A stretch of 64,000 nt of DNA, taken from Candidatus Dormiibacterota bacterium. Lineage in GTDB: Bacteria; Chloroflexota; Dormibacteria; Aeolococcales; Aeolococcaceae. A model generated the notes under the pieces. The model was not told the origin of the DNA and did no database searches. It saw only the letters and a list, made by a program, of their open reading frames with translations. The DNA lies in assembly GCA_003142035.1 (NCBI GenBank), contig PLOF01000050.1, forward strand, positions 191 to 64,190, in the 5' to 3' direction. Position 1 is the first letter of the stretch, and each line of letters begins with the position of its first letter. This document shows positions 925 to 51,006 of the stretch, one piece after another. Position numbers and translations under genes: made by a program.

Positions 925-5301
<4,377 letters not shown>

Positions 5302-22084: not shown

Positions 22085-22251
22085 GAACGGTGCTGAGGAG
22101 CACATGGTAGACGGGAGGCGCCCGGCGGCTTGGAAAAGATCGTGTATCGAATGTGTTGCCTTGCCCTACCATCGGTGGAGACGGGCGAGAATCGCCCTTG
22201 GCGGCCCTTCAGCTGGATGGCCGTCCGTGGTGCCCAAGAGGAGTCCCATCT

Positions 22252-33650: not shown

Positions 33651-35459
33651 TCAGGCGATCCGGATACCGGTGCCGGCCCCGAGCGGCCGGCCCTCGCGCA
33701 GAAGTCGAAGGATCTCGTCGGCCGGCACCGGGGGTGAGAAGAGGAAGCCCTGGTAGGCGTCCAGGCCCTGGGGCTGCAGGCGGCTGAGCTGTTCCTCCGT
33801 CTCGACGCCCTCGGCGATCACCCGCAGACCGAGGTTGCGGCCCAGGGTCACCACGGCGTGGATCAGGGCCCCGGGGTCCGGGGCGGGATTCGCCTCGTCC
33901 TCGAGGAGGAGGCTGCGGTCGATCTTGATCGTGCTGACCGCCAGGTGGTGGAGCTTGCCGATGTTGGAGTAGCCAGTCCCGAAGTCGTCCAGCGAGATGG
34001 TCACGCCCCGGCGCGAGAGCTCACCGAGCACATCGGCGGCCGCATGGGGATCGACCATGGCCGCCGAATCGGTGACCTCCAGCTCGAGCAGATGGGCCGG
34101 GAGCCCGCTCTCTTCCAGGCACTCGAGCACGGCCGCGACGAGGCTGCGGTCAGTCAGCTGGTAGGCCGAGACGTTGACCGCAACCCGAACGTCTCCCCGC
34201 CCGTCCGACCGCCACTGAGCCGCATGCCGGACCGCGCTCCGCAGGACGAACCGACCGATCTCCGTGATGACTCCGATCTCCTCGGCGATGGGGATGAACC
34301 GGATGGGGGGAACCTCCCCGAGCACCGGGTGATGCCAGCGGGCGAGCGCCTCGAGACCAACGATGCGGTGAGAGACGGCATCGACCTCCGGCTGGTAGGC
34401 GACGCTGAGCTCCCCCCGCTCCAGGGCGAGGGGGAGCTGCTGCTCGATGAGGAGCCGGCCCTCGGCCTCCTGTGAGAGGGCGAGCTCAAAGCGGGCCATG
34501 TGCTCGGTCGAGGTGCGCCCGGCGTGCTGCGCGATGGCGGCGTACCGCATCAACGTGGCGGGATGGTCGCCATCGGACGGTGCCAGAGCGATCCCGATCG
34601 CGGCGCTCAGCCGGAGGTCGGCGGCGAGGCCGGTGCAGGGGGCCGCGACGGCCGCCACGATGGAGCGCGCCATGTGGACGGCCTCCTCGGGGAAGACCAG
34701 GCCGGGAAGGAGGACGGCGAACTCGTCGTCCGACCAGCGCGCGACCAACCACGCGCTCATCGGTTCGGACGCGCCGGCAGGCAGCGGGAGCGACGGTGTG
34801 CGCCCCGCGGCGGCTCCGACGCAGTCCGAGACTCGTTCCGCCATCTCGGCGACCAGCTGGTCCCCCGCATCCTGGCCGAGGGTCTCGACCACAGTGCGCA
34901 GCCGGTCGAGCGCCACCAGGAGGACGCCGGTCGAGCGTCCCGAGCGACGCCCGGCGCTCAACTCGCTGCCGAGCCGCCAGCGGAAGGTGGAGGCGTTGGG
35001 AAGTCCGGTGAGGCGATCGTGCGAGGCGTCGAAGTCCCTCTCGGCGGCCAGGTGGTCGCGTTCCTCGGTCCACCGGGTCACGTCGACCCCCACGGAGGTG
35101 ACGGAGGACGGCCGGCCGTCCTCGCCGAGGCTCGGTGTGGCCGACCAAGCCACGATCCGCACCCGCCCATCGCTGGTTCGGAGCGGCGCCTCGACGGTGG
35201 CGGTATCGTCCTTACCGGTCACGGCTCGATCGAAGGCTCGGACCACGCGGCGCCGGTGCTCGGGAGCGATCAGCACCTCGTGCCAGAGACGGCCGCTCAG
35301 GTCGCTCCAGCGCCACCCTCCGAGGGCGAGCAGGTCGCCGTTGGCGAAGGCGAGGCGACCGTCAGCATCGGTGATCATGGCCAGGACGATCTGCCGCCCC
35401 GAGGCTCTCTGGTCCCGACCTCCCGTTTCCAGGCGGCAGCGCGGTCCCTTGGCAAGCAT
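33651..35459 (-). CDS. PAS, degenerate GGDEF and EAL protein
   Basis: The GGDEF-domain signature reads SDDEF. The EAL domain looks intact (EALARW, ELEVTD, DDFGTGYS, EGVE, QGF). Trimmed to ATG 35459. Confidence 0.88.
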   Translation of the reverse strand: MLAKGPRCRLETGGRDQRASGRQIVLAMITDADGRLAFANGDLLALGGWRWSDLSGRLWHEVLIAPEHRRRVVRAFDRAVTGKDDTATVEAPLRTSDGRVRIVAWSATPSLGEDGRPSSVTSVGVDVTRWTEERDHLAAERDFDASHDRLTGLPNASTFRWRLGSELSAGRRSGRSTGVLLVALDRLRTVVETLGQDAGDQLVAEMAERVSDCVGAAAGRTPSLPLPAGASEPMSAWLVARWSDDEFAVLLPGLVFPEEAVHMARSIVAAVAAPCTGLAADLRLSAAIGIALAPSDGDHPATLMRYAAIAQHAGRTSTEHMARFELALSQEAEGRLLIEQQLPLALERGELSVAYQPEVDAVSHRIVGLEALARWHHPVLGEVPPIRFIPIAEEIGVITEIGRFVLRSAVRHAAQWRSDGRGDVRVAVNVSAYQLTDRSLVAAVLECLEESGLPAHLLELEVTDSAAMVDPHAAADVLGELSRRGVTISLDDFGTGYSNIGKLHHLAVSTIKIDRSLLLEDEANPAPDPGALIHAVVTLGRNLGLRVIAEGVETEEQLSRLQPQGLDAYQGFLFSPPVPADEILRLLREGRPLGAGTGIRIA

Positions 35460-35715
35460 CCGGTGGCGACCTCTTGAATCACGCCGACCCCCGGGCATCC
35501 CCCCCGGAGCAACGGCGGCTATGGTCGCCCGAAGGGATGGGAATGAAAGACGCTTTCAGCCAGCCTGGGACGCTCAAGAGACAACAACGTCATCGTCACA
35601 CGACCCCACCCTCCCGGTGTGACGGCGGGCGGCCCGGAAGAGCCTTATCACGACTGAGAAGAGGCGCCGCGACGGTGTGCTGGAGGACCGGAGCGGATCA
35701 GACGCATCGCTCGCG

Positions 35716-35862
35716 TTCACGACTTCACACGAACCCCGTTACCCGCCCGTCGCCGCTTCGGCGGGGGCTTCGTCAGATCACTCCCCCTAGCCTGCCCATT
35801 GCCGTCTAGTGCATTTGACCTATCTGGCTAGAGCGGTCAGAGACTTTGAAGGAATGAAGATC
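35716..35862 (+). promoter_or_regulatory. Conserved upstream module, copy A (candidate promoter/operator of TasA-like gene 1)
   Basis: Aligns with 36611..36762. The invariant 16-mer CGTCTAGTGCATTTGA lies at 35803-35818. CCGTTACCCG at 35736-35745 and GGCTTCGT.AGATC are also shared. Confidence 0.55.
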
Positions 35863-36519
35863 ATGGAACGGAAGAGCAGACGATCGCTTCGAGTGGCCCT
35901 GGTGCTGGGCGCCGCCGTGGCCGGCACCGCCCTGGTCGGCTGGGGCGGGTTGGCGGCATGGAGTGCCTACACCGAGAACGCCGGCAACAGCGTCGCGGCC
36001 GGCACTCTCGCGCACAACAACTACGTCAGCTCCAACTGCGCGTCGGTCATCGGAGTGGCCCCGGTTGGCACCGGCCCCGGCTGGTGCTCCGTCCTGATCA
36101 CGGTCAACGGAGCTGACGCCGTGAACGGGAAGCTTCCCGCCACAGGCGTCGTCAAGATCGACAACACGGGCACCCTCTCAAGCACCTTTCAGATGAGCAT
36201 GCCGTCAGCCCCGGTCAGCTCTGGCGGAACCATCTGCGCGGACCTCACCCTCGCGGTCTCCGACCCCGACGCCGGGGCCCCGGGAACCCCCTACGCCGCA
36301 ACCGCGCTGACCAGCACGATGGGGCCGACCACGATCGACAACAATGCGAGCACTCCGAGCGCGACCTGGTCGCCCAACGGCACGGCCGGCACGGGCACCG
36401 GCGCGACGGGCAACACCTTCACCTTCACCGTGGCCGCCCTGACCAGCTTCGGAAACAACTACGCGGACGCCGGACAGAGCTGCACCTTCAGCATTCTCTT
36501 CACCCAGACGGCCGCCTAA
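35863..36519 (+). CDS. TasA/camelysin-like secreted protein with a SipW-type signal peptide, paralog 1
   Basis: N-terminus RRSLRVALVLGAAVAGTALVGWGGLAAWSAYTENAGNSVAAGTL parallels B. subtilis TasA (..GGGTWAAFND..FASGTL). The C-terminal CTFSILFTQT parallels TasA LQFSFEATQ. The start was set by homology with paralog 2. Confidence 0.8.
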   Translation: MERKSRRSLRVALVLGAAVAGTALVGWGGLAAWSAYTENAGNSVAAGTLAHNNYVSSNCASVIGVAPVGTGPGWCSVLITVNGADAVNGKLPATGVVKIDNTGTLSSTFQMSMPSAPVSSGGTICADLTLAVSDPDAGAPGTPYAATALTSTMGPTTIDNNASTPSATWSPNGTAGTGTGATGNTFTFTVAALTSFGNNYADAGQSCTFSILFTQTAA

Positions 36520-36534
36520 CCCACGCCTTGATCC

Positions 36535-36575
36535 GGAAGGCCGGGGCAGGATCTCCTGCCCCGGCCTTCCCTTTG
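36535..36575 (+). terminator. 16-bp perfect hairpin after TasA-like gene 1
   Basis: ggaaggccggggcagg-atct-cctgccccggccttcc followed by cttt. Confidence 0.65.
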
Positions 36576-36610
36576 CCCGTGGACGATAACGCGGCATACG
36601 GAGCGATCAG

Positions 36611-36762
36611 TTCACCACTTCCACCGAACACCGTTACCCGGCTGTGGCGGTATCGGACGAGGCTTCGTGAGATCGACCCCCCTAGGCTGCACCAGTAGCG
36701 TCTAGTGCATTTGAACTAGCTGCACCGAAAGACCAGAAGGCACAAATAGGGAACTGAAGATC
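36611..36762 (+). promoter_or_regulatory. Conserved upstream module, copy B (candidate promoter/operator of TasA-like gene 2)
   Basis: Homologous to 35716..35862. The invariant 16-mer lies at 36699-36714 and CCGTTACCCG at 36631-36640. Confidence 0.55.
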
Positions 36763-37365
36763 ATGGAACAGCACAAGAGCAGGCGATCCGTCCGGCTAGC
36801 CCTGGTCCTGGGCGCGGCCGTGGCGGGCACGGCCCTGGTCGGGTGGGGCGGCTTGGCCGCATGGCAGGCCTACACGCAGAACGCCGGTAACGCCTTCACG
36901 GTGGGGACCATCTCGCACACCAACGCAGTGGGTTCGCAAACCGCCTGCAACTCGACCCTCTCGTCCACCACCCCAGGTGCGTGCTCCATCATCGTCACCA
37001 ACGCGGCCCTGACGTCGGACTTCACCTCGATCAGCCAGACGGTGACCATCACCGACACCGGCTCGCTGGGCAGCACGTTCTTGATGTCGATGCCCGCGCC
37101 CGGCAGCAGCGAGCTCTGCAAGGATCTCGCCCTGACGGTCACCGACAGCGAGACATCGCCCGTCAACGTCTACCCGGCGACGGCGCTCACCGCGGCCATG
37201 AGCCCCACCGCACTGAAGACCAGTGGCGGCGCCAGCACCTGGGCGAACGGCAACGCCGACACCTTCACGTTCCTGATCACCCCCATCAACGGTTACGCCA
37301 CCGACGACGCCGTCCTGGGCGCGAGCTGCAGCTTCACCATCAACTTCACCCAGGCCAGCACCTAA
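36763..37365 (+). CDS. TasA/camelysin-like secreted protein, paralog 2
   Basis: Signal region nearly identical to paralog 1 (..LVGWGGLAAWQAYTQNAGNAFTVGTI). C-terminal CSFTINFTQ. Confidence 0.8.
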   Translation: MEQHKSRRSVRLALVLGAAVAGTALVGWGGLAAWQAYTQNAGNAFTVGTISHTNAVGSQTACNSTLSSTTPGACSIIVTNAALTSDFTSISQTVTITDTGSLGSTFLMSMPAPGSSELCKDLALTVTDSETSPVNVYPATALTAAMSPTALKTSGGASTWANGNADTFTFLITPINGYATDDAVLGASCSFTINFTQAST

Positions 37366-37386
37366 CCCCCAGCCATGATCTGAGGG

Positions 37387-37420
37387 GGGCCGGGAAGAGC
37401 GCCTTCCCGGTCCCTTTCTC
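37387..37420 (+). terminator. Hairpin after TasA-like gene 2
   Basis: ccgggaag-agcgc-cttcccgg with flanking G:C extension, followed by ctttctc. Confidence 0.45.
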
Positions 37421-37538
37421 CCCCACCCAGGCAACCAGGGCGAGCGCGGCGCCGCCCTTCCCCAACAGCGCCGCTGCCGCCTCTCCTCCGTCAGACCGGA
37501 GGCGGTGACGCCCACCACAGCAGTCTTGGAGGTTCCCC

Positions 37539-38162
37539 ATGTCCATCGAGCGGAAGACGTCCGACCGCAGGAAGCTGCGGGCCGGGATGGTCTTTGTCCT
37601 GGTTGTCGCCGGCACCGCCATGATCGGATGGGGTGGGTTGGCGGCATGGCAGGCGGTGACCGCGAACGACGGAAGCAGCTTCGCCACTGGCGGCGTACAC
37701 ATGCAGAACGTGGCCACAATCAGCTACCCCAACGGCCAGACACCGGTCACCTGCACTGAGCAGGTCTCCTCTGGAAACTGCGGCGCGATCTTTGCCGTCA
37801 CCGGCGCCGCTCCGGGATTCTCAGCATCGGTGGGCACGGTGCAGATCACCAACACCGGAGCCCTGCCGTCCACCTTTGCCCTCAGCCTCGGGTCGGCGGT
37901 CACGAGCGGTGCCGGCAGCACCCTCTGCGGTGACCTGACGCTCACCATCACCGACTCGACAGGGGCCTCTGTGTACAACGGCGCGCTGACCAACTTGGGC
38001 ACCACGCCGAACCTCTTCAAGGCGACGGGCTCCCCCTCTACCACCTGGAACCAGAACGACACCAACACCTTCACCTTCAACCTGGCGCTGCCCGGCAGCA
38101 CGAGCACCGACCAGGATTCCACCTGCACCGCTGACTTCACCTGGACCCAGACGCAGGCGTAA
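37539..38162 (+). CDS. TasA/camelysin-like secreted protein, paralog 3
   Basis: MIGWGGLAAWQAVTANDGSSFATGGV signal-type N-terminus and C-terminal CTADFTWTQTQ. Confidence 0.8.
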   Translation: MSIERKTSDRRKLRAGMVFVLVVAGTAMIGWGGLAAWQAVTANDGSSFATGGVHMQNVATISYPNGQTPVTCTEQVSSGNCGAIFAVTGAAPGFSASVGTVQITNTGALPSTFALSLGSAVTSGAGSTLCGDLTLTITDSTGASVYNGALTNLGTTPNLFKATGSPSTTWNQNDTNTFTFNLALPGSTSTDQDSTCTADFTWTQTQA

Positions 38163-38223
38163 GGATCTCCCTCAACCGTCCGGAGGCGGCGGCCACCCGC
38201 CGTTCTCCCTCGCCCTCAGGGTC

Positions 38224-38262
38224 ACGACCGCCGGCCTCGGCCACCACCGAGCCGGCGGTCGT
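38224..38262 (+). terminator. Long imperfect hairpin after TasA-like gene 3
   Basis: acgaccgccggc(c)tcgg-ccaccac-cgagccggcggtcgt. No U-tract. Confidence 0.4.
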
Positions 38263-38401
38263 CGCATATCCGGCGCTGCCCACGTCCCGCAACCGATTCG
38301 TTGCGCCCCGTTGCACGAGGCGTCGCCCAGGCGGGCCGACAATTGGCCGGGCGGCTCAAACCGCCTTTGATGGTGCGCGGAAGCAGCAGGGGAATTCGCT
38401 A

Positions 38402-39694
38402 GTGGGCAACGTGAGGGTGACGCTCCCCGAGGAGCTGCACGACCTGGTCAGGGACGTCGTGGCGGATCTCGAGTCCGCCACCGACAGCCTCGACCTGGGC
38501 GGTGTCCGGCCTGCCCAGCGCGCCCCCCGGCCAGAACGCCGTCATCTCCGACAGGCGACGATCCTCCGGATGCCCGAGCCGCTGGTGCCGGCGCCGCCAC
38601 CGGCCGCACCTGCGACCTCGGTGCCCCTCCCCCCTCCCACAACCCCCGTGGCCGTCGAGAGCTCGGTCCCGGCCCTCCCCGCCGCTCCGCGCCGGCGGGC
38701 CTTCCTGGCCCGGCTGGATATCGCCTCGACCGTCCCCAACGTCGCCCTGCCGGTCCGGACTCGCCGCCTCCAGGTGGCCTGCCGGCGTGCCTCTCCACTC
38801 GACGCCACCCGCATCTCCCGGATGCTGCGGGTGGCGGTACCGGCGATCCCGGTGGCCCCGGCCGCGCTCACGTCGCCGCCCGCCTGGCTGCTCGCCGCCA
38901 TGGCACCGTCCATCCCCGCCCCCCTCGCCGAGGTGCCGGCCGTCGCGCACCCGAACCCTGCCAGCGTCATCCTCGCCGGGCGGTCGTCCCCGACCCTGAC
39001 CGAGGTGAATGCCTCGCCCGCGGCCGCCACCACGGTGCCGGACATTCCCGTCGCGGTCACCACCGTGGCGGCCCCTCTCCCGGTCAGCGTTCCGGCCACC
39101 CTCCCGGCGCTCCCGATGGAGGAGCGCCTCCCGGTCTGGCGGGCCGCCGGCGGCCACGTCGTCAACCTCCTGATCGCCGCGGCCCTGGGGCTGGTGGCGA
39201 TCTTCTGCGCGATCGTGGTCGGGCTCGTCGTCACCGGGCACCACCTGGAGGAGGTGGTCACCGGGAGCATGCAGCCGATCATCCCGATCGGTTCGCTGGT
39301 CGTGACTGAGAACCTGCCGGCGGGCCAGCTCCAGGTCGGGGACATCATGGTGTTCCCCAACCCCAACGACACCAAGCTCACCATCGTTCACCGCATCGTC
39401 TGGCTGAGCCACGACCAGAGCGGCGACGTGCTGGTGCGGACCAAGGGTGACTACAACGCCCTGCCCGACGACTGGACCCTGAAGCGGGCGGCGAACGCCG
39501 AAGCCGACAGGGTCATCGAGATCCTCCCCGGTGCCGGGACGGCCGCCGGTTACCTTCAGACGATCGGCTTCGCCGGTCTGGTGCTGCTGATCGCAGGGGT
39601 GATCGTCTACTACGGCGTGCGCAAGGTCCGCCAGATCCTCAACGAGGACGACCTCCATGAGGAGGCGATCGGTGCCCCGGAGCGGCTGACATGA
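38402..39694 (+). CDS. SipW-type (ER/archaeal-type, S26B) signal peptidase I with an N-terminal extension of about 238 aa
   Basis: Catalytic region VVTGSMQPIIP, IVHRIVW, TKGDYNALPDDW, and a C-terminal TM as in SipW. The upstream P/A/V-rich 238 codons keep high third-position GC. The minimal start would be ATG 39116. Confidence 0.8.
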   Translation: MGNVRVTLPEELHDLVRDVVADLESATDSLDLGGVRPAQRAPRPERRHLRQATILRMPEPLVPAPPPAAPATSVPLPPPTTPVAVESSVPALPAAPRRRAFLARLDIASTVPNVALPVRTRRLQVACRRASPLDATRISRMLRVAVPAIPVAPAALTSPPAWLLAAMAPSIPAPLAEVPAVAHPNPASVILAGRSSPTLTEVNASPAAATTVPDIPVAVTTVAAPLPVSVPATLPALPMEERLPVWRAAGGHVVNLLIAAALGLVAIFCAIVVGLVVTGHHLEEVVTGSMQPIIPIGSLVVTENLPAGQLQVGDIMVFPNPNDTKLTIVHRIVWLSHDQSGDVLVRTKGDYNALPDDWTLKRAANAEADRVIEILPGAGTAAGYLQTIGFAGLVLLIAGVIVYYGVRKVRQILNEDDLHEEAIGAPERLT

Positions 39695-41532
39695 GCTACG
39701 ACACCCTGGGGATGATCCGGCGCGGCTGGCAGGACGGCGTCGCCACGGTGGCTCCGCACGTCCCCGGCCTGGCCGACCTGCTGGAGCAGCGACTGGCCGA
39801 GGCCATACGTCTTGGCCGGCTCGATGAGGCAGGACTGCTCTCCATCGTGGACGCCGCGACCCAGCTGGCCGCCGACATGGGCGCCGTCGACATCGCCCCG
39901 GCGCTCAGCAAGCGGCTGCGCCGCCACGTGTACGAATACCTCCTCTCCCTCGACGCACTGAGCAGCTCCGATCGGAACGAGGCGGCGGGGCAGGCTCCTC
40001 CCCCGGAGGAGGGCGAGGCGATGGACGGCGCCGACCTGGCCAGCGGGTTTGCCGAGATGCGGCTGGCCGAGGTCGGCTCCTCGGCTCCCGCGTCCAACGG
40101 CGGCGGACCGCACCGTTTCCCGCCCATGTACCCCCTTGCCGAACCCAACCAGCCGCTCCGGGACTCCACCTATCCAGATTCCGAATCGGCGTACGCCCAC
40201 CCGGAGTCCATGTACGTCGCGCCGGAGTTCAGCTATCCGCAACCGGAATCACCGTACCCCCTTCCCGAGTCGCCGTATCCGCTCGCGGAGTTTTCCCGCT
40301 CCCTTCCCGAGTCGCTCTACCCGCCTCCCGACGCCACCTCCCCCCCGCCGGAGGAGGACGGAACCAGCGGCGCGGAGGAGGACGGCTCCCGATCGTCACC
40401 GCCTCAGTTCAGCTTTCATATCGGCGACCCGGACGACCTGCTGACGAGCCGGGCGCCGCAACAGGAACGGGGGACGGTGGCGGAAACGGCGGCGCCCTCC
40501 GGTGCGTTCGGCGCCGGCGAGGTGGAAACGCCGACGGAGGCTCCCGTGCCGGCCCGCCGCCGGGCCTCCTTCTCCGACCCCTCGACGTGGCCAAAGCCGG
40601 TGACGCCCACGCTGAAGGGGGTGCGCGATCCGCTCGCCGAGGGGCTCCGCGACGAGCTCCTCTCGCCCGACGACCTTCCGGTGTCTCCCGCCCCCGACGG
40701 AACCCGTTTCCAGAATGTGGGTCACTGGCCCGCGGCTCCCGCCGCTGAACCACCTCACCGGAGCGGGCCGCCCGACCTGGCCCGATGGTCATCTCCGTGG
40801 CCGGCCCCCGAAACGCCCCCTGCCGTCAGGCGCGAAGCGCCGATCACCAACCCGGCGCCCACCCCCGGCATCGCAGCCTTCGTGCCGGCGACCGGCCCCG
40901 CTCACCACGACGTGCGCGAGGACTGGCGGGTGGCGGCCGAGGGATGGCTCCCCGCGAGCCCCGCAACGGCAGCCGGTGCCCCCCCCTCCGAGATCGCGGC
41001 CGGCTGGTCGGTGCGGCAGCAAGACGCTGTGGAATTGCACATGGCGCCACCATCGACCGCTGGAGCACCCGCGCCAGCGGTCGATGACGTCCCGGAGCGC
41101 GATCTCGTCGCGCTCCGCGCCGGCGTGGGCGAGAAGCTGCGCAAAAAGCGGTGCGACGATGTCGCCGCGGTGCTGCAGCAGGCCGCTCAGGAGCTCGGAG
41201 GTCAGGCCGTCGCCGAGCTCGCCCTCGACGCGGGCGATCGGTGCCGGAGCCTCGGCAAGCGCAATGCGGCGCTCAACTGCTACCTGGCCGCATCGCGCGC
41301 CGACCCGATCTACGAGCCCCCCCTGGCGCGCCTGGCCGACATCTGCATCGATGACCAGGACATCGATCTGGCAGTTTCATACCTGGAACGCATCGCACGT
41401 CTCACCCGGCTGCGCGGGGACAACCACGGTGCGCTGCGGATCTACCGTAAGATCGCGACCATCGCCCCCTATCGGGACGATGTCCTCGAGATGCTGATGC
41501 GGGCCCAGACCACCGGTAGGATCGACCCGTGA
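39691..41532 (+). CDS. Repeat-rich protein with a C-terminal TPR-like domain
   Basis: ATGA overlap with the peptidase stop. Contains YPxPES-type repeats, a long P/A/E-rich linker, and C-terminal helical repeats (..NAALNCYLAASRADPIYEP..AVSYLERIA..). Confidence 0.7.
   Translation: MSYDTLGMIRRGWQDGVATVAPHVPGLADLLEQRLAEAIRLGRLDEAGLLSIVDAATQLAADMGAVDIAPALSKRLRRHVYEYLLSLDALSSSDRNEAAGQAPPPEEGEAMDGADLASGFAEMRLAEVGSSAPASNGGGPHRFPPMYPLAEPNQPLRDSTYPDSESAYAHPESMYVAPEFSYPQPESPYPLPESPYPLAEFSRSLPESLYPPPDATSPPPEEDGTSGAEEDGSRSSPPQFSFHIGDPDDLLTSRAPQQERGTVAETAAPSGAFGAGEVETPTEAPVPARRRASFSDPSTWPKPVTPTLKGVRDPLAEGLRDELLSPDDLPVSPAPDGTRFQNVGHWPAAPAAEPPHRSGPPDLARWSSPWPAPETPPAVRREAPITNPAPTPGIAAFVPATGPAHHDVREDWRVAAEGWLPASPATAAGAPPSEIAAGWSVRQQDAVELHMAPPSTAGAPAPAVDDVPERDLVALRAGVGEKLRKKRCDDVAAVLQQAAQELGGQAVAELALDAGDRCRSLGKRNAALNCYLAASRADPIYEPPLARLADICIDDQDIDLAVSYLERIARLTRLRGDNHGALRIYRKIATIAPYRDDVLEMLMRAQTTGRIDP
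40165..40332 (+). repeat. Degenerate 7-8-aa coding repeats (Y-P-x-P-E-S-x)
   Basis: STYPDSESAYAHPESMYVAPEFSYPQPESPYPLPESPYPLAEFSRSLPESLYPPPD. Confidence 0.75.
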
Positions 41533-41700
41533 GCGCGCTCGGGGGGAGTGGAGAAGGCGCACTCATCTGTTACCGGGTAGTGACATCCAGTTCGCCGGTC
41601 TCGTGCACACTCGGTCGACCGGCCTCAGCCGCACCAACCGTGTCCCGCACCGCACCCAGCCCGGGGTGATGGCGGCGCGGGGACCAGCAGAGGAAAGCAA

Positions 41701-42609
41701 GTGGCGATCCCCTCCAACAAGCCTCAGAACCGGATCCTTCTCGTTGGCGGCATCATCTTCGCCCTGCTCGCGGGCGTAGTGGTCTTCATCGCCGTCTCCA
41801 GATCGTCGAGCACGCCCCCGGCCCAGCCCGAGACGCCGGTGGTTGTGGCGGCGACGGCGATCACCGCCGGTTCCCAGCTCTCGACCGCCAATCTCACCAC
41901 TCGCGAGTACCTGAACATCGACCTTCCGACCAACTACTACACGACCACCACCCAGGTGGTCGGGCAGACCCTCCCCGTCGCGGTCTCTGCCGGGACCCCG
42001 ATCACCGAGGCGTTGCTGCAGGCCACCCCCGGCTCGAGCGGTGCCTCGACCCTGACCACTCCGGGCGACCAGCTCCCGATCGCCAACAACGAGGTGGCCC
42101 TGGCCATCCCGGCCCACGAGGCAACGCCGGACACCACCGTCGATCAGATGAGCGTCGGCTACTACATCCTTGCCGGCGACCAGATCGACATCATCGGTGA
42201 CCTGGGTACCTCCGCCACGGCCAGTCACCAGGTCCAGTACCTCTTCCAGGACATCCCGGTGCTGGCGGTCGGTTACGCCACGCCGACCACCACCCCTGCG
42301 AGTGGAACGGCGACGACGACAGCCGCGCCAACCCTGTCGGCGCCCAGCTACTTCGTGGTCGAGATGAGCAGGTCGCAGGCTGAAGAGATGACCGCGCTGC
42401 TGACCGGTAATTTCACGTCGGTCGCGGGTGGCAACCCCGCGCTCGTCCTCAAGTACGTGCTCCGCCCGACCAGTGAATACGGCACCACCAACTCGAGCGG
42501 CGCCTTCGTCCCCAAGATCGAGAGCAACGTCAGTGCCAGCCCGGCACCGTCCGCCTCCGACCAACCGGTGACGCCGTCGTCGCTGGCCGGGGCGTTCACA
42601 GGCTCGTGA
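41701..42609 (+). CDS. cpaB: Flp pilus assembly protein CpaB/RcpC-like (SAF domain)
   Basis: N-terminal TM (ILLVGGIIFALLAGVVVFIAV), then a SAF-like segment (VVAATAITAGSQL..). GTG start after AGAGGAAAG. Confidence 0.8.
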   Translation: MAIPSNKPQNRILLVGGIIFALLAGVVVFIAVSRSSSTPPAQPETPVVVAATAITAGSQLSTANLTTREYLNIDLPTNYYTTTTQVVGQTLPVAVSAGTPITEALLQATPGSSGASTLTTPGDQLPIANNEVALAIPAHEATPDTTVDQMSVGYYILAGDQIDIIGDLGTSATASHQVQYLFQDIPVLAVGYATPTTTPASGTATTTAAPTLSAPSYFVVEMSRSQAEEMTALLTGNFTSVAGGNPALVLKYVLRPTSEYGTTNSSGAFVPKIESNVSASPAPSASDQPVTPSSLAGAFTGS

Positions 42610-42650
42610 TCCCGGGAGTGCCGAAGGACAAACGGACGTAGGGCCCGGCA

Positions 42651-43631
42651 ATGACCGACTTCCTCCCCCTGCTCGCAGCGGTCCTGGTGGCCTGCTTCCT
42701 GCTCTGCTGGGTCGCCCTGATCGCGACCCGGAGCCGGACTGAGGCCGACGAGGTGGCCCGCCGTCTGAGCGCCTACATGGGCGGTCAGCGGCCCCCCCAG
42801 CCCGAGCGGATCAAGAGCGGGAACCCCCTTCGCGATGCTCTCGACGTCTTCACCGAAGCCATCAACCCGCTGTTCGCCCGGGGCTCCTACGCGGGCAAGC
42901 TCGCCGAGGACCTCCAGAAAGCCGGACTGCGACTCAAGGCCTCCGAATGGATGCTGATCGTCGCCGGTGTGGGGGTGGTGATCGGCGCCATCTTCTGGCT
43001 GCGGTTCGGCACATTCATCGCCTTCATCCCCTGCCCCATCGTGATCTGGATCGCGAGCGGCATCTTCCTCCGCTTCCGCCAGACCCGGCGCACCCGCGCC
43101 TTCGAGAATCAGCTCGGCGACACGATCATCCTGCTCAGCAACGCGCTCAAGGCCGGTCTCTCCTTTGCCCAAGCGATGAGCACGGTGGCGAAGAACGCGT
43201 CACCGCCCATCTCCGAGGAGTTTGCCCGCGCCACCCGCGAGATCGCGCTCGGCATCCCCGTGGACGACGCCCTCCAGCACATGGTGCAGCGCAACAAGTC
43301 AGAGGACTTCGACCTGATGGTCACCGCAGTGCAGATCCAGCGCGTGGTCGGAGGCAACCTGGCCGAGATCCTCGACACGATCGCCTACACGATTCGCGAG
43401 CGGGTGCGCATTCACGGTGAGATCCGGACCATCACGGCGCAGGCCCGGATGTCGGGCATGATCATCACACTCCTGCCGGTCGGGCTCGCGCTGTTCCTCT
43501 TCTTCGTGGAGCCGTCGTACTTCGCGCCGATGATCAAGCAGACCCTCGGTTGGGTGATGCTGGGCGTGGGCGCCCTGAGCATCTTGGTGGGGACGGCGAT
43601 CATCCAGAAGATCGTCAGGATCGAAGTATGA
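42651..43631 (+). CDS. tadB: TadB-like type II secretion system F-domain protein
   Basis: T2SSF domain (LPDxxxLLSxALxAGLSFxQA..) and TM topology typical of TadB. Confidence 0.88.
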   Translation: MTDFLPLLAAVLVACFLLCWVALIATRSRTEADEVARRLSAYMGGQRPPQPERIKSGNPLRDALDVFTEAINPLFARGSYAGKLAEDLQKAGLRLKASEWMLIVAGVGVVIGAIFWLRFGTFIAFIPCPIVIWIASGIFLRFRQTRRTRAFENQLGDTIILLSNALKAGLSFAQAMSTVAKNASPPISEEFARATREIALGIPVDDALQHMVQRNKSEDFDLMVTAVQIQRVVGGNLAEILDTIAYTIRERVRIHGEIRTITAQARMSGMIITLLPVGLALFLFFVEPSYFAPMIKQTLGWVMLGVGALSILVGTAIIQKIVRIEV

Positions 43632-44560
43632 TCGCCTACCTCGCCGGCGCTCTCGCAGCCTGCTCGGTGGCCCTGGTGGTGCTCTGGCTCCGTCAGGCCC
43701 GGTCGCCTCAGGCGGACCTCCTGGAAGCGCGCCTGGCCCAGTTCACCGAGTCCGGGCGCGCCGTCCAGAGCCTGGCCGAGGTGGAGATGACCCTTCCGTT
43801 CTTCGATCGGGTCCTCCGGCCGACCCTGGATCGTTGGGGACGGCGTCTTGCCGCCCGGAACAACCAGCAGCGCACCCAGGCCCTGCAGGAAAAGCTCAAC
43901 CTGGCCGGGAGGCCGTGGGGGCTGACGGTGGGCGGCTTCCTGGTGCTGCGCATCATCGCCGTCATCCTCGTCGGCTTCTTCGGGCTCGCCATCGCCGCCC
44001 TGCTCCAGTTCCCGGTGCCCCAGCTCCTCCTCGGCCCCGTGGCCGGCATCGTCATCGGCTATCTGCTGCCGGACGCGACCATCTCCCGCCGCATGCGAGG
44101 CCGGCAGAAGGAGATCCTGCTGGCGCTGCCCTCGTCACTCGACCTCCTCACCATCAGCGTCGAGGCCGGGCTCGGCTTCGACGCCGCCCTGGGCCGGGTA
44201 TGCGACAAGTACCGCAACGCTCTGGCCTCCGAGTTCAACCAAGTGCTCAACGAGATCCGCCTGGGCCGCCCGCGGATCGAGGCGCTCGACGACATGGCGA
44301 GACGCAACAAGGTGGATGAGCTGAACAACTTCATCCAGGCGATCATCCAGTCGGAACAGCTCGGCGTCGGCATCGCCAACGTGCTGCGCATCCAGTCAGA
44401 GGAGATCCGGCGGCGCCGGCGCCAGCGGGCCGAGGAAACCGGCCAGAAGGCCCCGCTGAAGATGCTCTTCCCCATGGCCTGCTGCATCTTCCCGACGCTC
44501 TTTATCGTCCTTCTCGGTCCCGCCGCCCTGCAGGTTCTCCAGGAGTTCGGCGTCAAGTGA
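43628..44560 (+). CDS. tadC: TadC-like type II secretion system F-domain protein
   Basis: T2SSF domain (LPSSLDLLTISVEAGLGFDAAL..). ATGA overlap with tadB. Confidence 0.88.
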   Translation: MIAYLAGALAACSVALVVLWLRQARSPQADLLEARLAQFTESGRAVQSLAEVEMTLPFFDRVLRPTLDRWGRRLAARNNQQRTQALQEKLNLAGRPWGLTVGGFLVLRIIAVILVGFFGLAIAALLQFPVPQLLLGPVAGIVIGYLLPDATISRRMRGRQKEILLALPSSLDLLTISVEAGLGFDAALGRVCDKYRNALASEFNQVLNEIRLGRPRIEALDDMARRNKVDELNNFIQAIIQSEQLGVGIANVLRIQSEEIRRRRRQRAEETGQKAPLKMLFPMACCIFPTLFIVLLGPAALQVLQEFGVK

Positions 44561-44603: not shown

Positions 44604-45452
44604 TCAACCCGAGCGGATGGTCTCCAAGACGGCGATCGCCTCGGCAAGGCGACGCTCGAAGCGGATGCGCCAGCGTTCGCGGAGCACCGGGCTCGAGCGA
44701 TAGACGCTGGGCCCCGGCAGCTGGTCGCGGCGCAGCATCTCCGCCAGGTGGGCGAGCTCAGGCTCGAGCTCGGTGAGTCCCAGCCGGGCGACCACATGGA
44801 CCGCAGCCCCGACCCTCAGCAGCTCGCCTGACAACAGCCAGTCGTGGACGGCCGCCACGATGCCCTCGCGGCCCTCCTCGGCAAGCGCCCGCGAGTAGAC
44901 GAGGAGATCCGCTTCCAGGGCATCGGCAGCGTCCTCCAGGCGGCGTTCAAAGGCGGCCAGCACAGCGTCCCTGGCGCCCTGGTGGGCCAGCACAGCGGCG
45001 AGGCCAGGAGCGACCCGCCCGAGGAGGAGCTTCTCGAACGGCGTGAACTCCACGTAGCCGATGCGGTCCGCGGCGATCGAGACGATCCAGGGACTGCCGT
45101 CCGCTCGGAGCAGGCAGAGGTTCTCGGGGAGCCCCGGCTGGCGCCAGGCGAAGAGCCCCGGCGCCTCACTCAGCACGTCGATGCAGGCCTGGTTGAACTC
45201 GTAGCGGAGGAGCCGGACGTCGCCGTTCCGGCTCTCGGAGCGCAGCTGGCTGGACAGGCGGTCGACGATGGCCTGCCCGGCAGGGTGTAGGTCGTGGTTG
45301 GCGTCGAGGCTCAGCACCGCCGTGTCGCACTGGGCGCGGGCACAGACGAGCAAGGCCCGGTAGTCATCGCCCGTCGGTTCGTCGACAAGGTCGTAGGTCT
45401 TGCGACCGGAGACGTCGACGCCGCTGAGGCGGGCGATGAAGCTCCTATCCAT
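44604..45452 (-). CDS. Hypothetical protein (282 aa)
   Basis: Long ORF with high third-position GC and non-repetitive sequence. No family recognised. Confidence 0.65.
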   Translation of the reverse strand: MDRSFIARLSGVDVSGRKTYDLVDEPTGDDYRALLVCARAQCDTAVLSLDANHDLHPAGQAIVDRLSSQLRSESRNGDVRLLRYEFNQACIDVLSEAPGLFAWRQPGLPENLCLLRADGSPWIVSIAADRIGYVEFTPFEKLLLGRVAPGLAAVLAHQGARDAVLAAFERRLEDAADALEADLLVYSRALAEEGREGIVAAVHDWLLSGELLRVGAAVHVVARLGLTELEPELAHLAEMLRRDQLPGPSVYRSSPVLRERWRIRFERRLAEAIAVLETIRSG

Positions 45453-45569: not shown

Positions 45570-46202
45570 ATGGACGTCACAGAGTCGTTGGCCCCCGGTC
45601 CGGGACGGGCCGACCGTGCTAGATTCGCGCGTGCCGTGCCAGGGTACGGCCTCAATGAGGCCCTCGCCGATCTGATCCTCGTCCTGATCGTCGGCGTCAA
45701 CTGCTACCTCGGTTGGCGCCACGGTCTGGTCCGCCGTGCCATCGCCTGCGTCGCGGTTTATGGCGGCATCCTGGCCGCGTACTACGTGGGCGACCCGCTG
45801 GCCGGGACGCTCGGGAACTCCAACCTGACCGGCAACGCCTGGGCATTCGTCGGCGTGTTCGGGGTGGGCGTGCTGATGATCGAGATCCTCGCCGCGCTCT
45901 ACTCCGACCTGATCAAGAAGACCATCACGGTCATGTTTGACCGCGTCACCGGGCTCGCGGCCGGCCTTGTGGTCGGGGTGCTCGAGCTGGGAGTGGTCCT
46001 CCTCGTGATCCAGGCGGTCGCGGACGCCCCGCCGTCAACGGCCAATGTCTCCTCGGCGATCCGAACCACTCCGGCCATCGCCGTGGACCACGGCGTCCTG
46101 ACCCAGGTCGTCGTCGATCTGGAGCCGGGGATCCAAAGGCTGCTCAGCCCCGCCATTCCCGGCAACATCCAGGACCGGCTGGACCAGTACTCCGCCGGCT
46201 GA
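45570..46202 (+). CDS. CvpA-family membrane protein
   Basis: Four TM helices with a CvpA-like pattern (DLILVLIVGVNCYLGWRHGLVR..). The start is uncertain (ATG 45570). Confidence 0.7.
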   Translation: MDVTESLAPGPGRADRARFARAVPGYGLNEALADLILVLIVGVNCYLGWRHGLVRRAIACVAVYGGILAAYYVGDPLAGTLGNSNLTGNAWAFVGVFGVGVLMIEILAALYSDLIKKTITVMFDRVTGLAAGLVVGVLELGVVLLVIQAVADAPPSTANVSSAIRTTPAIAVDHGVLTQVVVDLEPGIQRLLSPAIPGNIQDRLDQYSAG

Positions 46203-46225: not shown

Positions 46226-46615
46226 TCAGGCGGGAACGGGCTGGTCGGACCCGAAGAAGGAGCGCACGACCGACCCCAGGCCAACCAGGTTGAACGGCTT
46301 GGTGATGAGGTGATTGGCCCCCGCGAGCCGGGCACGCTCGACATCGTCGTCGCCGGAGAGCGCACTGAACATCAGGACCGGGATGTCGGCGGTGGCCGGA
46401 TCGCCACGGATCCGCCGGCATGCTTCCAGCCCGTCCATCCCCGGCATCATGATGTCGAGGATGATCAGATCGGGGCGTTGGGCGTCCACCTCCCGAAGAC
46501 CCTCCTCGCCATTGGAGGCCGTCCTCACCTCATAGCCCTCGATCCCCAGGTACATCTCGACGATGTGGAGCAACCGGGGATCGTCATCCACAACCAGGAT
46601 GCGGCGCTGTCTCAC
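46226..46615 (-). CDS. Stand-alone receiver (CheY-like) response regulator
   Basis: RILVVDDD..ILDIMMPGMDG..FSA..KPF. GTG 46615 gives VRQRRILVVDDD. The longer ORF to 46825 looks non-coding at its 5' end. Confidence 0.82.
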   Translation of the reverse strand: MRQRRILVVDDDPRLLHIVEMYLGIEGYEVRTASNGEEGLREVDAQRPDLIILDIMMPGMDGLEACRRIRGDPATADIPVLMFSALSGDDDVERARLAGANHLITKPFNLVGLGSVVRSFFGSDQPVPA

Positions 46616-46754: not shown

Positions 46755-47516
46755 TCAGGGACGGGAAAGTGCCGCCTCCGCGGCACCTCGGACCCCGGCG
46801 AAGACCAAACTCTGGTATCCCTCACGCTCGATTCCCCGGTGGATCACGCCGAGGAGGCGACGATTGAAGTCCTTGCGTCGCTGAGCGTCGACCTCGGGCG
46901 GCGGCATGGCGCCGTGGAGCCGCTGGACGATCCAGGGTGGGGTGAGGCGATCCACGCTCTCCGCATTGACGCGGACCTCGACCTCCGCGTCCGCGCACTC
47001 CTCAACAAGGAGCGCGATCCGGAGGCTCTCGCCGGAATGGTCCACCAGCTTCCAGGCTCGCTCCCAGGCGCGGCGCCGGTCGCAGCCGATGAAGACAAAG
47101 TAAACGGGGTCCGTGACGAGCCGGGCCTGGTCATCGCGAAGGCCGGCGAGAAGCAGCTGCCGGATGTCGGCATCGACCTCCCGAGCCACCCAGCTGACCA
47201 AGGAGGGCGCCCGGGTCTCGAGGTCGGGCATCGGGGCGGTGTGACCGACATAGCCGACGGGCAGGGCGCTGACCACGCCGGCATGCCTCCGGCAGTACAC
47301 GCGACCGTCAATGACCAGACGATGATCGGGGCACCACGACGTCCGGCAGTCGTGGCCGCGGCGATCCACGTACTCGCAGGCGAGACCGGTGGTCCTCCCG
47401 CATCCCGGCTGGGTGCAGCGCTGGTCCCCGGCCAGGTCGGCGAGAACGGCGGTGCCGCGTTCCGATCCGGCCCCGGAGATGGCGATGGGCGGTCTCGACA
47501 TGCTCCACGAGGCCAT
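46755..47516 (-). CDS. Hypothetical protein with an N-terminal Cys/His-rich (zinc-ribbon-like) segment
   Basis: CTQPGCG..CEY..HDCRTSWCPDH..YCRRH. ATG 47516 lies 6 nt after AAGGTG. Confidence 0.6.
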   Translation of the reverse strand: MASWSMSRPPIAISGAGSERGTAVLADLAGDQRCTQPGCGRTTGLACEYVDRRGHDCRTSWCPDHRLVIDGRVYCRRHAGVVSALPVGYVGHTAPMPDLETRAPSLVSWVAREVDADIRQLLLAGLRDDQARLVTDPVYFVFIGCDRRRAWERAWKLVDHSGESLRIALLVEECADAEVEVRVNAESVDRLTPPWIVQRLHGAMPPPEVDAQRRKDFNRRLLGVIHRGIEREGYQSLVFAGVRGAAEAALSRP

Positions 47517-47760
47517 GACGGTCACCTTAGCATCGGCCGGCGACCTCATCCGGCACCTTCACCGAGCCGTTGAAGCCGGCCCTCGGAGTGGCCCCCACGC
47601 GGGGTTAGGACTGTTTTTGGGGGCCCCCGAAGATGTGAGATCGGTTGTTACCGACCCTTCGCACTTCACGCATCCCAGGAGGGAGGGATCAGAGCATAGT
47701 TCGCAGGAGCCGCCCTAGCAGCGGCCACTCTACGTGTCATAAGGAGGTGAAGCAGCCGAT

Positions 47761-47961
47761 ATGTTGAGCAACCTTTACCAGCGCCTTCGTGGGCTCATGG
47801 TTCGTAAGACCGAGCTCGAAGAGAAGGAGAAGGGCCAGGGAATGGTCGAGTACGCCCTGATCCTCGTCCTCATCGCCATCGTTGTCATCGTCATCCTGAC
47901 CGTGGTTGGCCACCAAGTCAACAACATCTTCTCGAACATCAGCAGCTCCCTGGGCACGTAA
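47761..47961 (+). CDS. flp: Flp-family type IVb pilin precursor
   Basis: G/MVEYALILVLIAIVVIV Flp motif (Gly, then xxEY plus a hydrophobic helix). AAGGAGGTG SD sequence 10 nt upstream. Followed by a strong terminator. Confidence 0.9.
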   Translation: MLSNLYQRLRGLMVRKTELEEKEKGQGMVEYALILVLIAIVVIVILTVVGHQVNNIFSNISSSLGT

Positions 47962-47985
47962 TCCACCAGGGCACTTGCCGAAAAA

Positions 47986-48014
47986 GGGGAGCCGCACCCG
48001 CGGCTCCCCTTTTC
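47986..48014 (+). terminator. Rho-independent terminator after flp
   Basis: 10-bp perfect stem ggggagccgc/gcggctcccc, loop accc, then tttt. Confidence 0.85.
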
Positions 48015-49706: not shown

Positions 49707-49716
49707 GGGGGACGGC

Positions 49717-51006
49717 GTGATCCGCGTCCTCCTCGCCGACGAATCGACCCGCATCATCGAGAACCTCACCAAGCGTCTGGGCCAGGAGGAGGACCTCACC
49801 GTCTGTGCTGTCGCCGGGGACGGCGACACGGCCCTCCAGGAGGCCCTGCGCACCCAGCCCGACGTGGCCGTGGTGGACGCCGGGCTCCCCGGCATGGACG
49901 GCATCCAGACCACCGAGATGCTGGTGCAGTACCTGCCCAACACGGGGGTGATCCTCCTCTCCATGGAGGCCGAGAATGAGGCCTTCCGGCGCGCCATGCT
50001 GGCCGGGGCCCGTGAATTCCTGCAGAAGCCCTTCAGTGGCGACGAGCTGGTATCCGCGATCCGCCGCGTGCACGCGTACGGGCAACGTAAGGGGACCCCA
50101 GCGGCCTCCCCGGCCGCCGACCCCGGTGCCGACGCCGGTGCCGACGCCGGTGCCGCACCCTCACGCGGGGGCAAGCTCTTCACCGTGGTCGGCGCCAAGG
50201 GAGGAGTGGGGAAGTCGGTGATCGCAGCCAACCTCGCCGTGTCGCTCGGCCGGACCTGCCGGGTGGCGCTGCTGGACTGCTCGCTGCAGTTCGGCGACAT
50301 CGGCATCCTGCTGAACATCACCGCCGAGCGCACCATCGCGGACCTGGCGGCCAACAACGCCGTGGCGGATCACGACGTGGTCGAGGACGTGATGGTCGAC
50401 GGGCCGGGTGGGGTGCGGGTGCTGGCCGCCCCGATCAGCCCCGAGCTGGCGGACTACGTCACCACCCAGCACCTGAGGGCTCTGATCGAGCAACTGCGGC
50501 GCACCTACGACTGCATCGTGGTGGACACCGCCACCCACCTCAGCGAGATCAGCCTGGACCTCGTTGAGATGGCCGACAAGATCCTGGTGGTCACCGACCT
50601 GAGCACCACCGGGGTGAAGAACGCTCGGCTGCTCCAGACGGTCATGGGGGTGCTCAAGGTCGACCCGGCGCGCTTCGTGCTCGTCGTCAACCACCGGGAC
50701 GGGGCGGGCGAGCTGGAGCGGAGCTACGTCGAGAACGTCCTCAAGACCGAGGCGACCGTGGAGATCCCGTACGACCCGAACGTGGTCGCCACCTCGATCG
50801 CCCGCGGGGTGCCCTTCCTCCTGTCCCAGCCTCAGAGCCAGGCGGCACTCCGCATCGCCGGACTGGCCGGTCTGCTTTCCTCGGCTGTGCCGGGACGCGG
50901 CCACCCCGGGGCCGGCGCGGCAATGCTCGATGCCGCGCCCCACAAGCGGCGGAGACGGCTCAGCATCGGCCGCAACCGGTCCGGCCAGGCGCCGGCCTCG
51001 GACTGA
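49717..51006 (+). CDS. TadZ/CpaE-like protein 2: canonical receiver plus MinD/ParA-type ATPase
   Basis: VLLADES..VVDAGLPGMDG..LSM..QKPF, then GAKGGVGKSVIAANLA, DCSLQFGD. GTG 49717 follows GAGGGGGA. Confidence 0.85.
   Translation: MIRVLLADESTRIIENLTKRLGQEEDLTVCAVAGDGDTALQEALRTQPDVAVVDAGLPGMDGIQTTEMLVQYLPNTGVILLSMEAENEAFRRAMLAGAREFLQKPFSGDELVSAIRRVHAYGQRKGTPAASPAADPGADAGADAGAAPSRGGKLFTVVGAKGGVGKSVIAANLAVSLGRTCRVALLDCSLQFGDIGILLNITAERTIADLAANNAVADHDVVEDVMVDGPGGVRVLAAPISPELADYVTTQHLRALIEQLRRTYDCIVVDTATHLSEISLDLVEMADKILVVTDLSTTGVKNARLLQTVMGVLKVDPARFVLVVNHRDGAGELERSYVENVLKTEATVEIPYDPNVVATSIARGVPFLLSQPQSQAALRIAGLAGLLSSAVPGRGHPGAGAAMLDAAPHKRRRRLSIGRNRSGQAPASD

Follow-up and report, generated by a model that had tools for sequence, protein, structure and literature searches.

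A gene cluster that combines TasA/SipW-type fiber genes with genes of a Tad pilus was analyzed in a 64,000-nucleotide stretch of contig PLOF01000050.1 from a Dormibacterota bacterium (assembly GCA_003142035.1), hereafter called the window. The window has a G+C content of ~70%; genes were called from third-codon-position G+C and cross-checked against gene calls on identical metagenome contigs. From 35.8 to 44.6 kb, three genes for small TasA-like proteins, the gene for a SipW-type signal peptidase, a TPR-protein gene referred to here as X613, and cpaB, tadB and tadC follow one another on the forward strand. A first-pass annotation made from the sequence had named all of these genes, and each was found at the position and on the strand it gave, although the locus holds eight same-strand genes rather than the nine it counted. 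Two TadA/CpaF-type ATPases do lie upstream as it had stated, not at 14-20 kb but at 7.5-13.7 kb from the start of the locus (13-19.5 kb from cpaB), and flp and three TadZ-like genes lie downstream where it had placed them. The genes of the region are as follows, with REC denoting a receiver domain, ABC an ATP-binding cassette and aa amino acids.

22153-23544, + strand: tadA1, TadA/CpaF-type ATPase 1 (T2SSE)
23623-25170, - strand: REC-EAL protein
24813-26501, - strand: histidine kinase
26634-28376, - strand: tadA2, TadA/CpaF-type ATPase 2 (T2SSE), with a Pro-rich N-terminal extension
~28.4-33.6 kb, + strand: CAP-domain protein, ABC ATPase, MacB/FtsX permease and lipoprotein
33651-35459, - strand: PAS-GGDEF-EAL protein, divergent from TasA-like 1
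35863-36519, + strand: TasA-like 1, 218 aa
36763-37365, + strand: TasA-like 2, 200 aa
37539-38162, + strand: TasA-like 3, 207 aa
38402-39694, + strand: sipW, S26 signal peptidase of 430 aa (TIGR02228)
39691-41532, + strand: X613, TPR protein of 613 aa
41701-42609, + strand: cpaB (SAF and RcpC domains)
42651-43631, + strand: tadB (single T2SSF domain)
43628-44560, + strand: tadC (single T2SSF domain), its start overlapping the tadB stop
44604-45452, - strand: hyp282
45570-46202, + strand: cvpA, CvpA-family membrane protein
46226-46615, - strand: stand-alone REC
46755-47549, - strand: hyp264, Cys-rich hypothetical protein
47761-47961, + strand: flp, 66-aa prepilin (PF04964)
48078-49706, + strand: first TadZ/CpaE-like ParA-family ATPase
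49657-51006, + strand: second TadZ/CpaE-like ParA-family ATPase, with an N-terminal REC
51011-52246, - strand: third TadZ/CpaE-like ParA-family ATPase, with an N-terminal REC

Conservation of the composite locus

The first-pass annotation had suggested comparative genomics as a check on whether the linkage of TasA-like/SipW genes with cpaB-tadBC is conserved, and across the Dormibacterota it is, in all recovered loci but one. Our comparative scan, which used one genome per species and the SipW catalytic domain as seed, returned 80 loci. At the species level, 22 loci were from Dormibacterota (L005-L026), and wherever the flank was long enough these had the same order and strands: TasA-like (2-6 genes)-sipW-X613-cpaB-tadB-tadC-hyp282-cvpA-REC-hyp264-flp. 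In the deepest of them (L026), SipW is 50%, TadB 55%, CpaB 28% and the TasA-like proteins ~30% identical to those of the window. Another (L023) is without the ABC and GGDEF-EAL block, and there tadA1 and tadA2 directly adjoin the TasA-like genes. Scanning metagenomes with more divergent TasA-like proteins as seeds yielded ~15 further composite loci, and the same order was found on gene-called contigs. The only recovered Dormibacterota locus that departs from the architecture, L123, is described below. Our literature searches turned up no paper on a linkage of TasA/SipW with Tad genes and none on pili, Tad pili included, in Dormibacterota.

SipW loci outside the phylum (n = 61) came from Actinomycetota, Clostridia, Dehalococcoidia and others. 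TadA, TadB, TadC and Flp were absent within 10 kb in 60 of the 61 when searched by tblastn and iterated hidden Markov models, and many of these loci have a single TasA-like gene directly upstream of SipW. The informative negatives outside the phylum are those for TadA, TadB, TadC, Flp and CpaB; what the TadZ query matched there was the receiver domain found in ordinary response regulators. Near SipW in locus L055 there is an isolated CpaB/SAF-like open reading frame (ORF). A separate group of metagenome loci (L108-L122) likewise consists of one TasA-like gene and SipW, with no Tad genes. The sole exception among the 61 is a locus in a Dehalococcoidia metagenome-assembled genome (MAG; L076), in which a PF12389 gene, SipW, DUF2341/LamG, GAF-HD, PilB (MshEN) and PilC lie on one strand (9278-16505), the PilB/PilC-type genes being 3.5-5 kb downstream of SipW. 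One in 61 is about the chance rate, and we do not take this locus to indicate that TasA and type IV filaments are generally linked. In the Arthrobacter-type cassettes of a TasA-like gene and SipW (L038, L046, L054, L055, L063, L070, L082, L085 and L086), an opposite-strand response-regulator gene is regularly found ~0.8-1.3 kb downstream of SipW.

A natural loss variant

Locus L123 was obtained via a 46%-identical X613 relative and sits on a 1.46-Mb contig. Its order is tadA1, REC-EAL, tadA2, a 109-aa ORF, X613, cpaB, tadB, tadC, hyp282, cvpA, REC, a hypothetical gene, flp and three tadZ. The Tad-cluster genes are intact, with 46-90% identity to those of the window, and the locus is without TasA-like genes and without the ABC/GGDEF-EAL block. 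The 109-aa ORF (9653-9982) is a SipW remnant. Of the SipW domain, only residues 88-173 are matched; the C-terminal part is retained and the Ser and His motifs are gone. Because this remnant stands in front of X613, the ancestor of the lineage had sipW adjoining X613, and because X613 itself was kept with the Tad genes, it belongs to the Tad side of the cluster. L123 therefore indicates that the Tad supercluster can be maintained without the TasA/SipW module.

The TasA-like proteins

The label "TasA-like" that the small proteins had been given did not hold at the level of curated models. No Pfam or NCBIfam match at E <= 0.01 was obtained for the three window proteins. When 62 members of the family were considered, PF12389 was matched weakly by 10 (best E 0.037), below its curated threshold, and NF046066 (TasA) weakly by 7 (best E 0.0087). 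The SipW-cognate signal models TIGR04088 and TIGR04089 had no match in the window proteins, and TIGR04089 matched weakly in 2 of the 62 members. The models for TadE and TadG were matched by no family member, even at E <= 1. What upholds the label is an N-terminal motif, a fold model, a profile search and a profile-profile alignment.

The N-termini consist of a basic region and a conserved hydrophobic region ending in GGLAAW, followed by xNxFxxGTL, an arrangement that resembles TasA and CalY. In TasA-like 1 the SipW-type signal and putative donor strand read ALVGWGGLAAW followed by SAYTENAGNSVAAGTL. The hydrophobic region of the signal is invariant across the TasA-like proteins, as are four cysteines. 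TasA-like 3 is of a SipW-proximal type, which is always the final copy before sipW and lacks the upstream element that the other copies share. An AlphaFold2 model of TasA-like 2 has a beta-sandwich core with a predicted local distance difference test (pLDDT) score of 85-94, and its N-terminal residues 1-63 score below 50 and are disordered. With this model, Foldseek returned the TasA fiber 8aur at probability 1.0 and E 3.6e-3, with a template-modeling (TM) score of only 0.39, and its top matches also include archaeal CanA (9hdi). The TasA-like profile, X613, hyp282 and CpaB were also searched against PDB sequences, with no useful match.

A profile built from the 62 family members (A1) and searched against 1.84 billion representative proteins found just 295 relatives. 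Among 34 distant full-length relatives, 15 scored above the PF12389 threshold, 9 had TIGR04088 and 3 had TIGR04089, and hhalign aligned A1 with the distant-relative alignment (A4) over 186 columns at 99.9% probability and E 6.5e-36. Alignment of the family with a single PF12389 protein covered only the signal and first strand (29 columns), so that the intermediate sequence set was needed. Based on these comparisons and the predicted fold, we place the three small proteins in the TasA/camelysin superfamily, as a divergent branch that has not been annotated and lies outside PF12389 as curated. TasA fibers self-assemble via donor-strand exchange with no dedicated machine (PMC9674648), and a TasA homologue, AbpA, has been described (PMC9245690).

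The SipW peptidase and a second SipW module

The sipW product scores above the TIGR02228 model for archaeal/SipW-type peptidases (64.3 bits against a cut-off of 51.85) and carries Ser (GSMQP), His (VHRI) and Asp (KGDYN) active-site motifs, in which GSMQP, HRI and KGDxN are invariant; it is thus of the Ser-His type. The equivalog model of Bacillus SipW, NF046067, gave 51.9 bits where 190 are required. By these scores the window enzyme is of the same type as Bacillus SipW but not its orthologue. An N-terminal extension of ~260 aa (38402-39180), Pro/Ala-rich with a short conserved helix at its very start, is far longer than that of Bacillus SipW and is conserved at 43-76% identity across the phylum. 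It is predicted to be cytoplasmic, with the catalytic domain following at residues ~263-417 and then a C-terminal transmembrane anchor.

The first-pass annotation made no mention of a second SipW module at the far end of the window:

61481 to ~63100, - strand: NHL/SGL beta-propeller protein of 595 aa, with the SipW-type signal GGAFAMFTDSTTAGPGSFQTGTL
63091-63810, - strand: second SipW-type peptidase

This peptidase gene lies directly upstream of that for the beta-propeller protein, which has the same class of signal, and shows no Tad linkage. A second SipW with its own substrate indicates that SipW-plus-substrate cassettes are a repeated, self-contained unit in this genome.

X613 and the Tad genes

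X613 has no signal peptide and no transmembrane segment. In an AlphaFold2 model it comprises an N-terminal four-helix domain (residues 1-95), a disordered stretch of ~370 residues (96-465) with the invariant motifs FHIGDPDD and SFSDPSTWP, and a near-invariant C-terminal domain of four TPR repeats (469-608, pLDDT ~95) that matches generic TPR structures only. Relatives of X613 were found in Dormibacterota only, and the named relatives of both X613 and the small proteins are nearly all from Candidatus Dormibacteria/Dormibacterota MAGs. The sipW stop and X613 start overlap by 4 nt (ATGA) in all gene-called loci. An apparent SipW-X613 fusion (P0358) was rejected as a frameshifted assembly artefact, as was P0355.

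The Tad set is dispersed rather than organized as one operon, and includes two T2SSE, two T2SSF and three ParA-type proteins, two of the latter with a receiver domain. CpaB has an N-terminal transmembrane segment, SAF and RcpC domains, and a Thr/Ser/Pro-rich tail; it scores 28.9 against 28.8 for Pfam RcpC, 35.3 against 21 for SAF, and 65.3 for TIGR03177, under the cut-off of 71. Flp reaches 37.7 bits with PF04964 (cut-off 32.2) and has the processing site ...KGQG/MVEYALIL.... Four accessory genes, hyp282, cvpA, REC and hyp264, are kept in every relative with enough flank.

A canonical G/MVEYA site means that Flp requires an A24 prepilin peptidase. The first-pass annotation had reported the absence of a secretin, TadV/CpaA and TadE/F/G, and this holds for the window as well as for the annotated flanks of relatives: no secretin, Peptidase_A24 (TadV/CpaA) or TadE/F/G (PF07811, PF13400) was found in the coding-like ORFs of the 64-kb window, nor A24, TadE/F/G or secretin in the Pfam-annotated flanks (+/-10 kb) of the relatives' loci. 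The lack of a secretin in the window is in keeping with an envelope that has no outer membrane. A role as cryptic prepilin peptidase was considered for the CvpA-family protein and rejected, because it has no GxGD-type motifs.

Non-coding elements and transcription units

A conserved element with the core GTCTAGTGCATTTGA lies ~60 nt upstream of TasA-like 1 (35804-35818, +), and a second copy precedes TasA-like 2 (36700-36714). The core is part of a conserved leader of ~170 nt, found in the window within 35640-35862 and 36560-36762, that precedes each TasA-like gene except the SipW-proximal one; 46 distinct copies were collected across Dormibacterota loci. No copy of the core precedes sipW, cpaB or flp, and none occurs in the remainder of the window. 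RNAalifold found no consensus structure in the 46 copies, which makes a promoter or operator likelier than a structured RNA, and Rfam recognized no riboswitch or known RNA in the window besides one tRNA. The leader is therefore probably a promoter/operator for some regulator or sigma factor.

TasA-like 1 is followed by a GC-rich, terminator-like hairpin of 16 bp and then CTTTG (36535-36570, +), and similar hairpins follow TasA-like 2 (37382-37418) and TasA-like 3 (~38182-38265). A strong GC hairpin was found 3' of 43 of 45 distinct non-terminal TasA-like genes (mean folding free energy -36 kcal/mol, mean z -4.8). With their own leaders and hairpins, the subunit genes resemble separate, strongly terminated units. 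A classical intrinsic terminator follows flp (47982-48013).

A different element, GCAACCGATTCGTTGC..CGTTGCACG..CGACAATTGG, is located ~110 nt before the sipW start (38291-38350, +). It includes the inverted repeat GCAAC-N6-GTTGC, is conserved in ~40 loci, L123 included, and is a putative promoter or operator for sipW-X613. Its retention before the SipW stub in L123 suggests that it drives X613 and possibly genes beyond. From these arrangements we infer that sipW-X613 is the only operon-level tie between the TasA-like and Tad systems. In the 168-nt gap before cpaB there is a further conserved element, CCCATCTGTTACCGG...TCACACTCGG (41560-41620).

Two probable fiber systems in one cluster

The reading we favor, with somewhat better than even confidence, is that the window encodes two independent fiber systems within one conserved adhesion/biofilm supercluster and that the two are probably co-expressed. 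The coupling between them is then regulatory and genomic, not structural, and each can exist alone.

The first system would be a TasA-superfamily matrix fiber with 2-6 paralogous subunits, three of them here. The subunits would be exported by Sec, cleaved by SipW after the invariant hydrophobic region (...GGLAA/W...), and, by analogy with TasA, polymerized outside the cell by donor-strand exchange through the freed N-terminal strand. Most of the subunit genes would be separate, strongly terminated transcription units. The second system would be a Flp/Tad pilus adapted to cells that lack an outer membrane, with genes spread over ~30 kb (two tadA, X613-cpaB-tadB-tadC, flp and three tadZ), and with its prepilin peptidase and any pseudopilins presumably encoded elsewhere. 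The systems appear to meet at sipW, which is translationally coupled to X613 and has an upstream element in common with it. Given this coupling and the shared element, synthesis of the peptidase for the TasA-like proteins probably accompanies expression of part of the Tad platform operon. The candidate c-di-GMP (cyclic diguanylate) regulators around the region, namely the PAS-GGDEF-EAL and REC-EAL proteins, and the receiver-domain proteins there would probably also contribute to co-expression of the two systems.

The first-pass annotation had raised co-regulation, shared components or an undescribed hybrid apparatus as possible meanings of the linkage. Co-regulation gains from the sipW/X613 overlap, from the constant association of X613 with cpaB-tadB-tadC, and from the upstream element retained in L123. 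The hybrid and shared-component versions are not supported, in view of L123, the stand-alone cassettes, and the elements and hairpins that the TasA-like genes have of their own.

Several points weigh against the two-system interpretation. The assignment of the small proteins to the TasA superfamily is transitive, with no curated model passed directly; the Foldseek TM-scores are low (0.32-0.39), and the best match is Bd1399 (8okh), a generic secreted beta-sandwich. The loss in L123 is read from the locus on its contig, and TasA-like/SipW genes may lie elsewhere in that genome. The conserved element upstream of cpaB may give cpaB-tadBC a promoter of their own, which would weaken the co-expression link, and consensus scans gave nothing for sigma-70 promoters and only chance-level results for terminators across 35.4-48.1 kb. 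The role of c-di-GMP is inferred from neighboring domains only. Finally, the whole 20-kb neighborhood is syntenic, ABC exporter included, and conserved adjacency by itself thus cannot separate functional linkage from slow rearrangement.

This last point leads to the alternative that survives best, namely that the adjacency has no functional meaning: an independent TasA/SipW cassette would have entered an ancestral tad cluster a single time, at a variable site, and been inherited ever since. The interval between tadA2 and X613 is indeed variable, with the ABC exporter/GGDEF-EAL block present or absent and 0 to 6 TasA-like copies; all of the flanking genes are syntenic too; the TasA/SipW and Tad modules are separable; and no cis-element is common to the TasA-like genes and flp, cpaB or sipW. 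However, the gene order is kept even where the proteins are only 50-55% identical (L026) and in every locus but one, the 4-nt overlap of sipW and X613 is conserved along with it, and the element upstream of sipW has outlasted the decay of SipW, implying that it drives X613. We consider simple inheritance of a fortuitous insertion unlikely, while leaving it a real chance.

In a hybrid apparatus, the CpaB-TadB-TadC platform would assemble, anchor or position the TasA-like proteins, one route being the binding of the cytoplasmic N-terminal extension of SipW to the X613 TPR scaffold, or else the TasA-like proteins would replace the missing TadE/F/G. The embedding of TasA/SipW among Tad genes throughout the phylum is in line with this, as are the translational coupling of sipW to X613, the extreme conservation of the X613 TPR domain and the conserved ~260-aa extension of SipW; the same can be said of the invariant hydrophobic region of the TasA-like signals and of the lack of TadE/F/G or TadV in the window and in any annotated relative locus. 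Yet the Tad supercluster and X613 are complete in L123 after loss of the TasA-like genes and of SipW catalysis, and the converse arrangement is seen in the Tad-free cassettes of other lineages and in the second SipW of the window with its non-TasA substrate. Moreover, the TasA-like N-termini have no G/xxxxE prepilin motif, type I cleavage would be expected to free these proteins from the membrane, unlike pseudopilins, the family has no match to the TadE/TadG models, and a terminator-like hairpin stands behind each subunit gene. The loss in L123, the stand-alone cassettes, the per-gene terminators and the published self-assembly of TasA (PMC9674648; PMC9245690) together disfavor an obligatory hybrid, and we hold such an apparatus to be improbable.

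A looser version, in which the TasA-like pathway is tethered to the Tad machine, has only a slim chance of being correct. Here the SipW extension would dock on X613 and X613 would bind TadA/TadZ/TadBC, the base of the Flp pilus would be the site where the subunits are processed and nucleated, and L123 would represent a secondary simplification. If true, this would amount to a two-fiber adhesion organelle.

Finally, that the small proteins are not fiber subunits at all but ordinary secreted beta-sandwich proteins with a SipW-type signal (adhesins, wall proteins or camelysin-like proteases) is very improbable: their lack of a direct curated match, the non-fiber top Foldseek hit Bd1399, four invariant cysteines like those of Bd1399-type proteins with two disulfides, and the service of a non-TasA substrate by a SipW of this window are set against a profile-profile match along the full length to a set with many PF12389 members, a conserved xNxFxxGTL strand motif equivalent to the TasA donor strand, a disordered stretch of 60 residues at the start of the monomer model, as a donor strand would be, and several paralogues beside a dedicated peptidase in a layout like tapA-sipW-tasA.

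Other features of the window

The remaining genes noted in the window are the following.

922-5301, + strand: rpoC
8834-12279: two large polytopic membrane proteins side by side (588 and 560 aa), no Pfam match
16.4-17.9 kb, + strand: ParA and ParB
19282-22105: three hypothetical genes ahead of tadA1, encoding products of 632, 102 (with a transmembrane segment) and 198 aa (- strand)
52.2-54.4 kb, - strand: rplA, rplK, nusG and secE
54476-54548, - strand: tRNA gene between secE/nusG and rpmG, the sole Rfam match of the window

The pair of membrane proteins has a response regulator on one side and, on the other, a PilS-like histidine kinase (13477-14838). The three hypothetical genes have same-position counterparts in L123 (557, 98 and 104 aa), and together with the ParA/ParB pair they may be members of the Tad supercluster.

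Significance and comparison with known systems

Peat, permafrost and desert soils contain abundant Dormibacterota, none of which has been cultured to our knowledge. The analysis adds a divergent, previously unannotated TasA-superfamily branch to this phylum and defines its dispersed Tad gene set, including the phylum-specific constant members. The two fiber systems have been together since deep in the phylum, with a peptidase gene wired to a Tad-side gene, and L123 and the stand-alone cassettes answer part of the question posed by the first-pass annotation, since the Tad cluster is retained where the TasA-like module is gone. Should the systems prove to be co-expressed, the locus would serve as a compact genetic marker of an adhesive/biofilm state in metatranscriptomes of these soils.

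The closest precedent for the first system is tapA-sipW-tasA of Bacillus subtilis. In both, the gene for a dedicated Ser-His (archaeal/ER-type) signal peptidase lies beside those for its substrates, of which there is more than one paralogue, and the substrates have a conserved signal, an xNxFxxGTL strand and a jelly-roll/beta-sandwich core, the core being predicted in the Dormibacterota proteins. The Dormibacterota locus differs in that its subunits fall below every curated threshold and are linked transitively, number 2-6 paralogues, whose genes mostly have a leader and a terminator-like hairpin of their own, and have four invariant cysteines. No TapA homologue was recognized, SipW has the ~260-aa cytoplasmic extension and is coupled to a TPR gene of the Tad cluster, and the host belongs to the Dormibacterota rather than the Firmicutes. 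Of the archaeal TasA homologues AbpA and CanA, the latter (9hdi) is among the Foldseek matches and represents this fold class; the archaeal bundling pilus (ABP) loci have no dedicated peptidase (PMC9245690). The stand-alone TasA-like+SipW cassettes of Actinomycetota (TIGR04089 class) resemble the locus in having a substrate with a SipW-type signal directly upstream of the peptidase, but they have no Tad neighbors.

For the second system, the relevant comparison is with Tad/Flp (type IVc) loci of monoderm bacteria, such as tad2003 of Bifidobacterium breve and the loci of Micrococcus luteus and Mycobacterium tuberculosis (flp). tadV can lie apart from the tad locus, as it does in B. breve. Shared features are a Flp with the G/xxxxEY motif, TadA, single-domain TadB and TadC, a TadZ with a receiver-like N-terminus, and no secretin. 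Unlike those loci, the cluster described here has no TadE/F genes and is distributed over at least four units and 30 kb, with two tadA and three tadZ paralogues and with cpaB-tadB-tadC apart from both tadZ and tadA; it has phylum-specific constant members (X613, hyp282, hyp264 and cvpA), and a TasA/SipW module is embedded within it.

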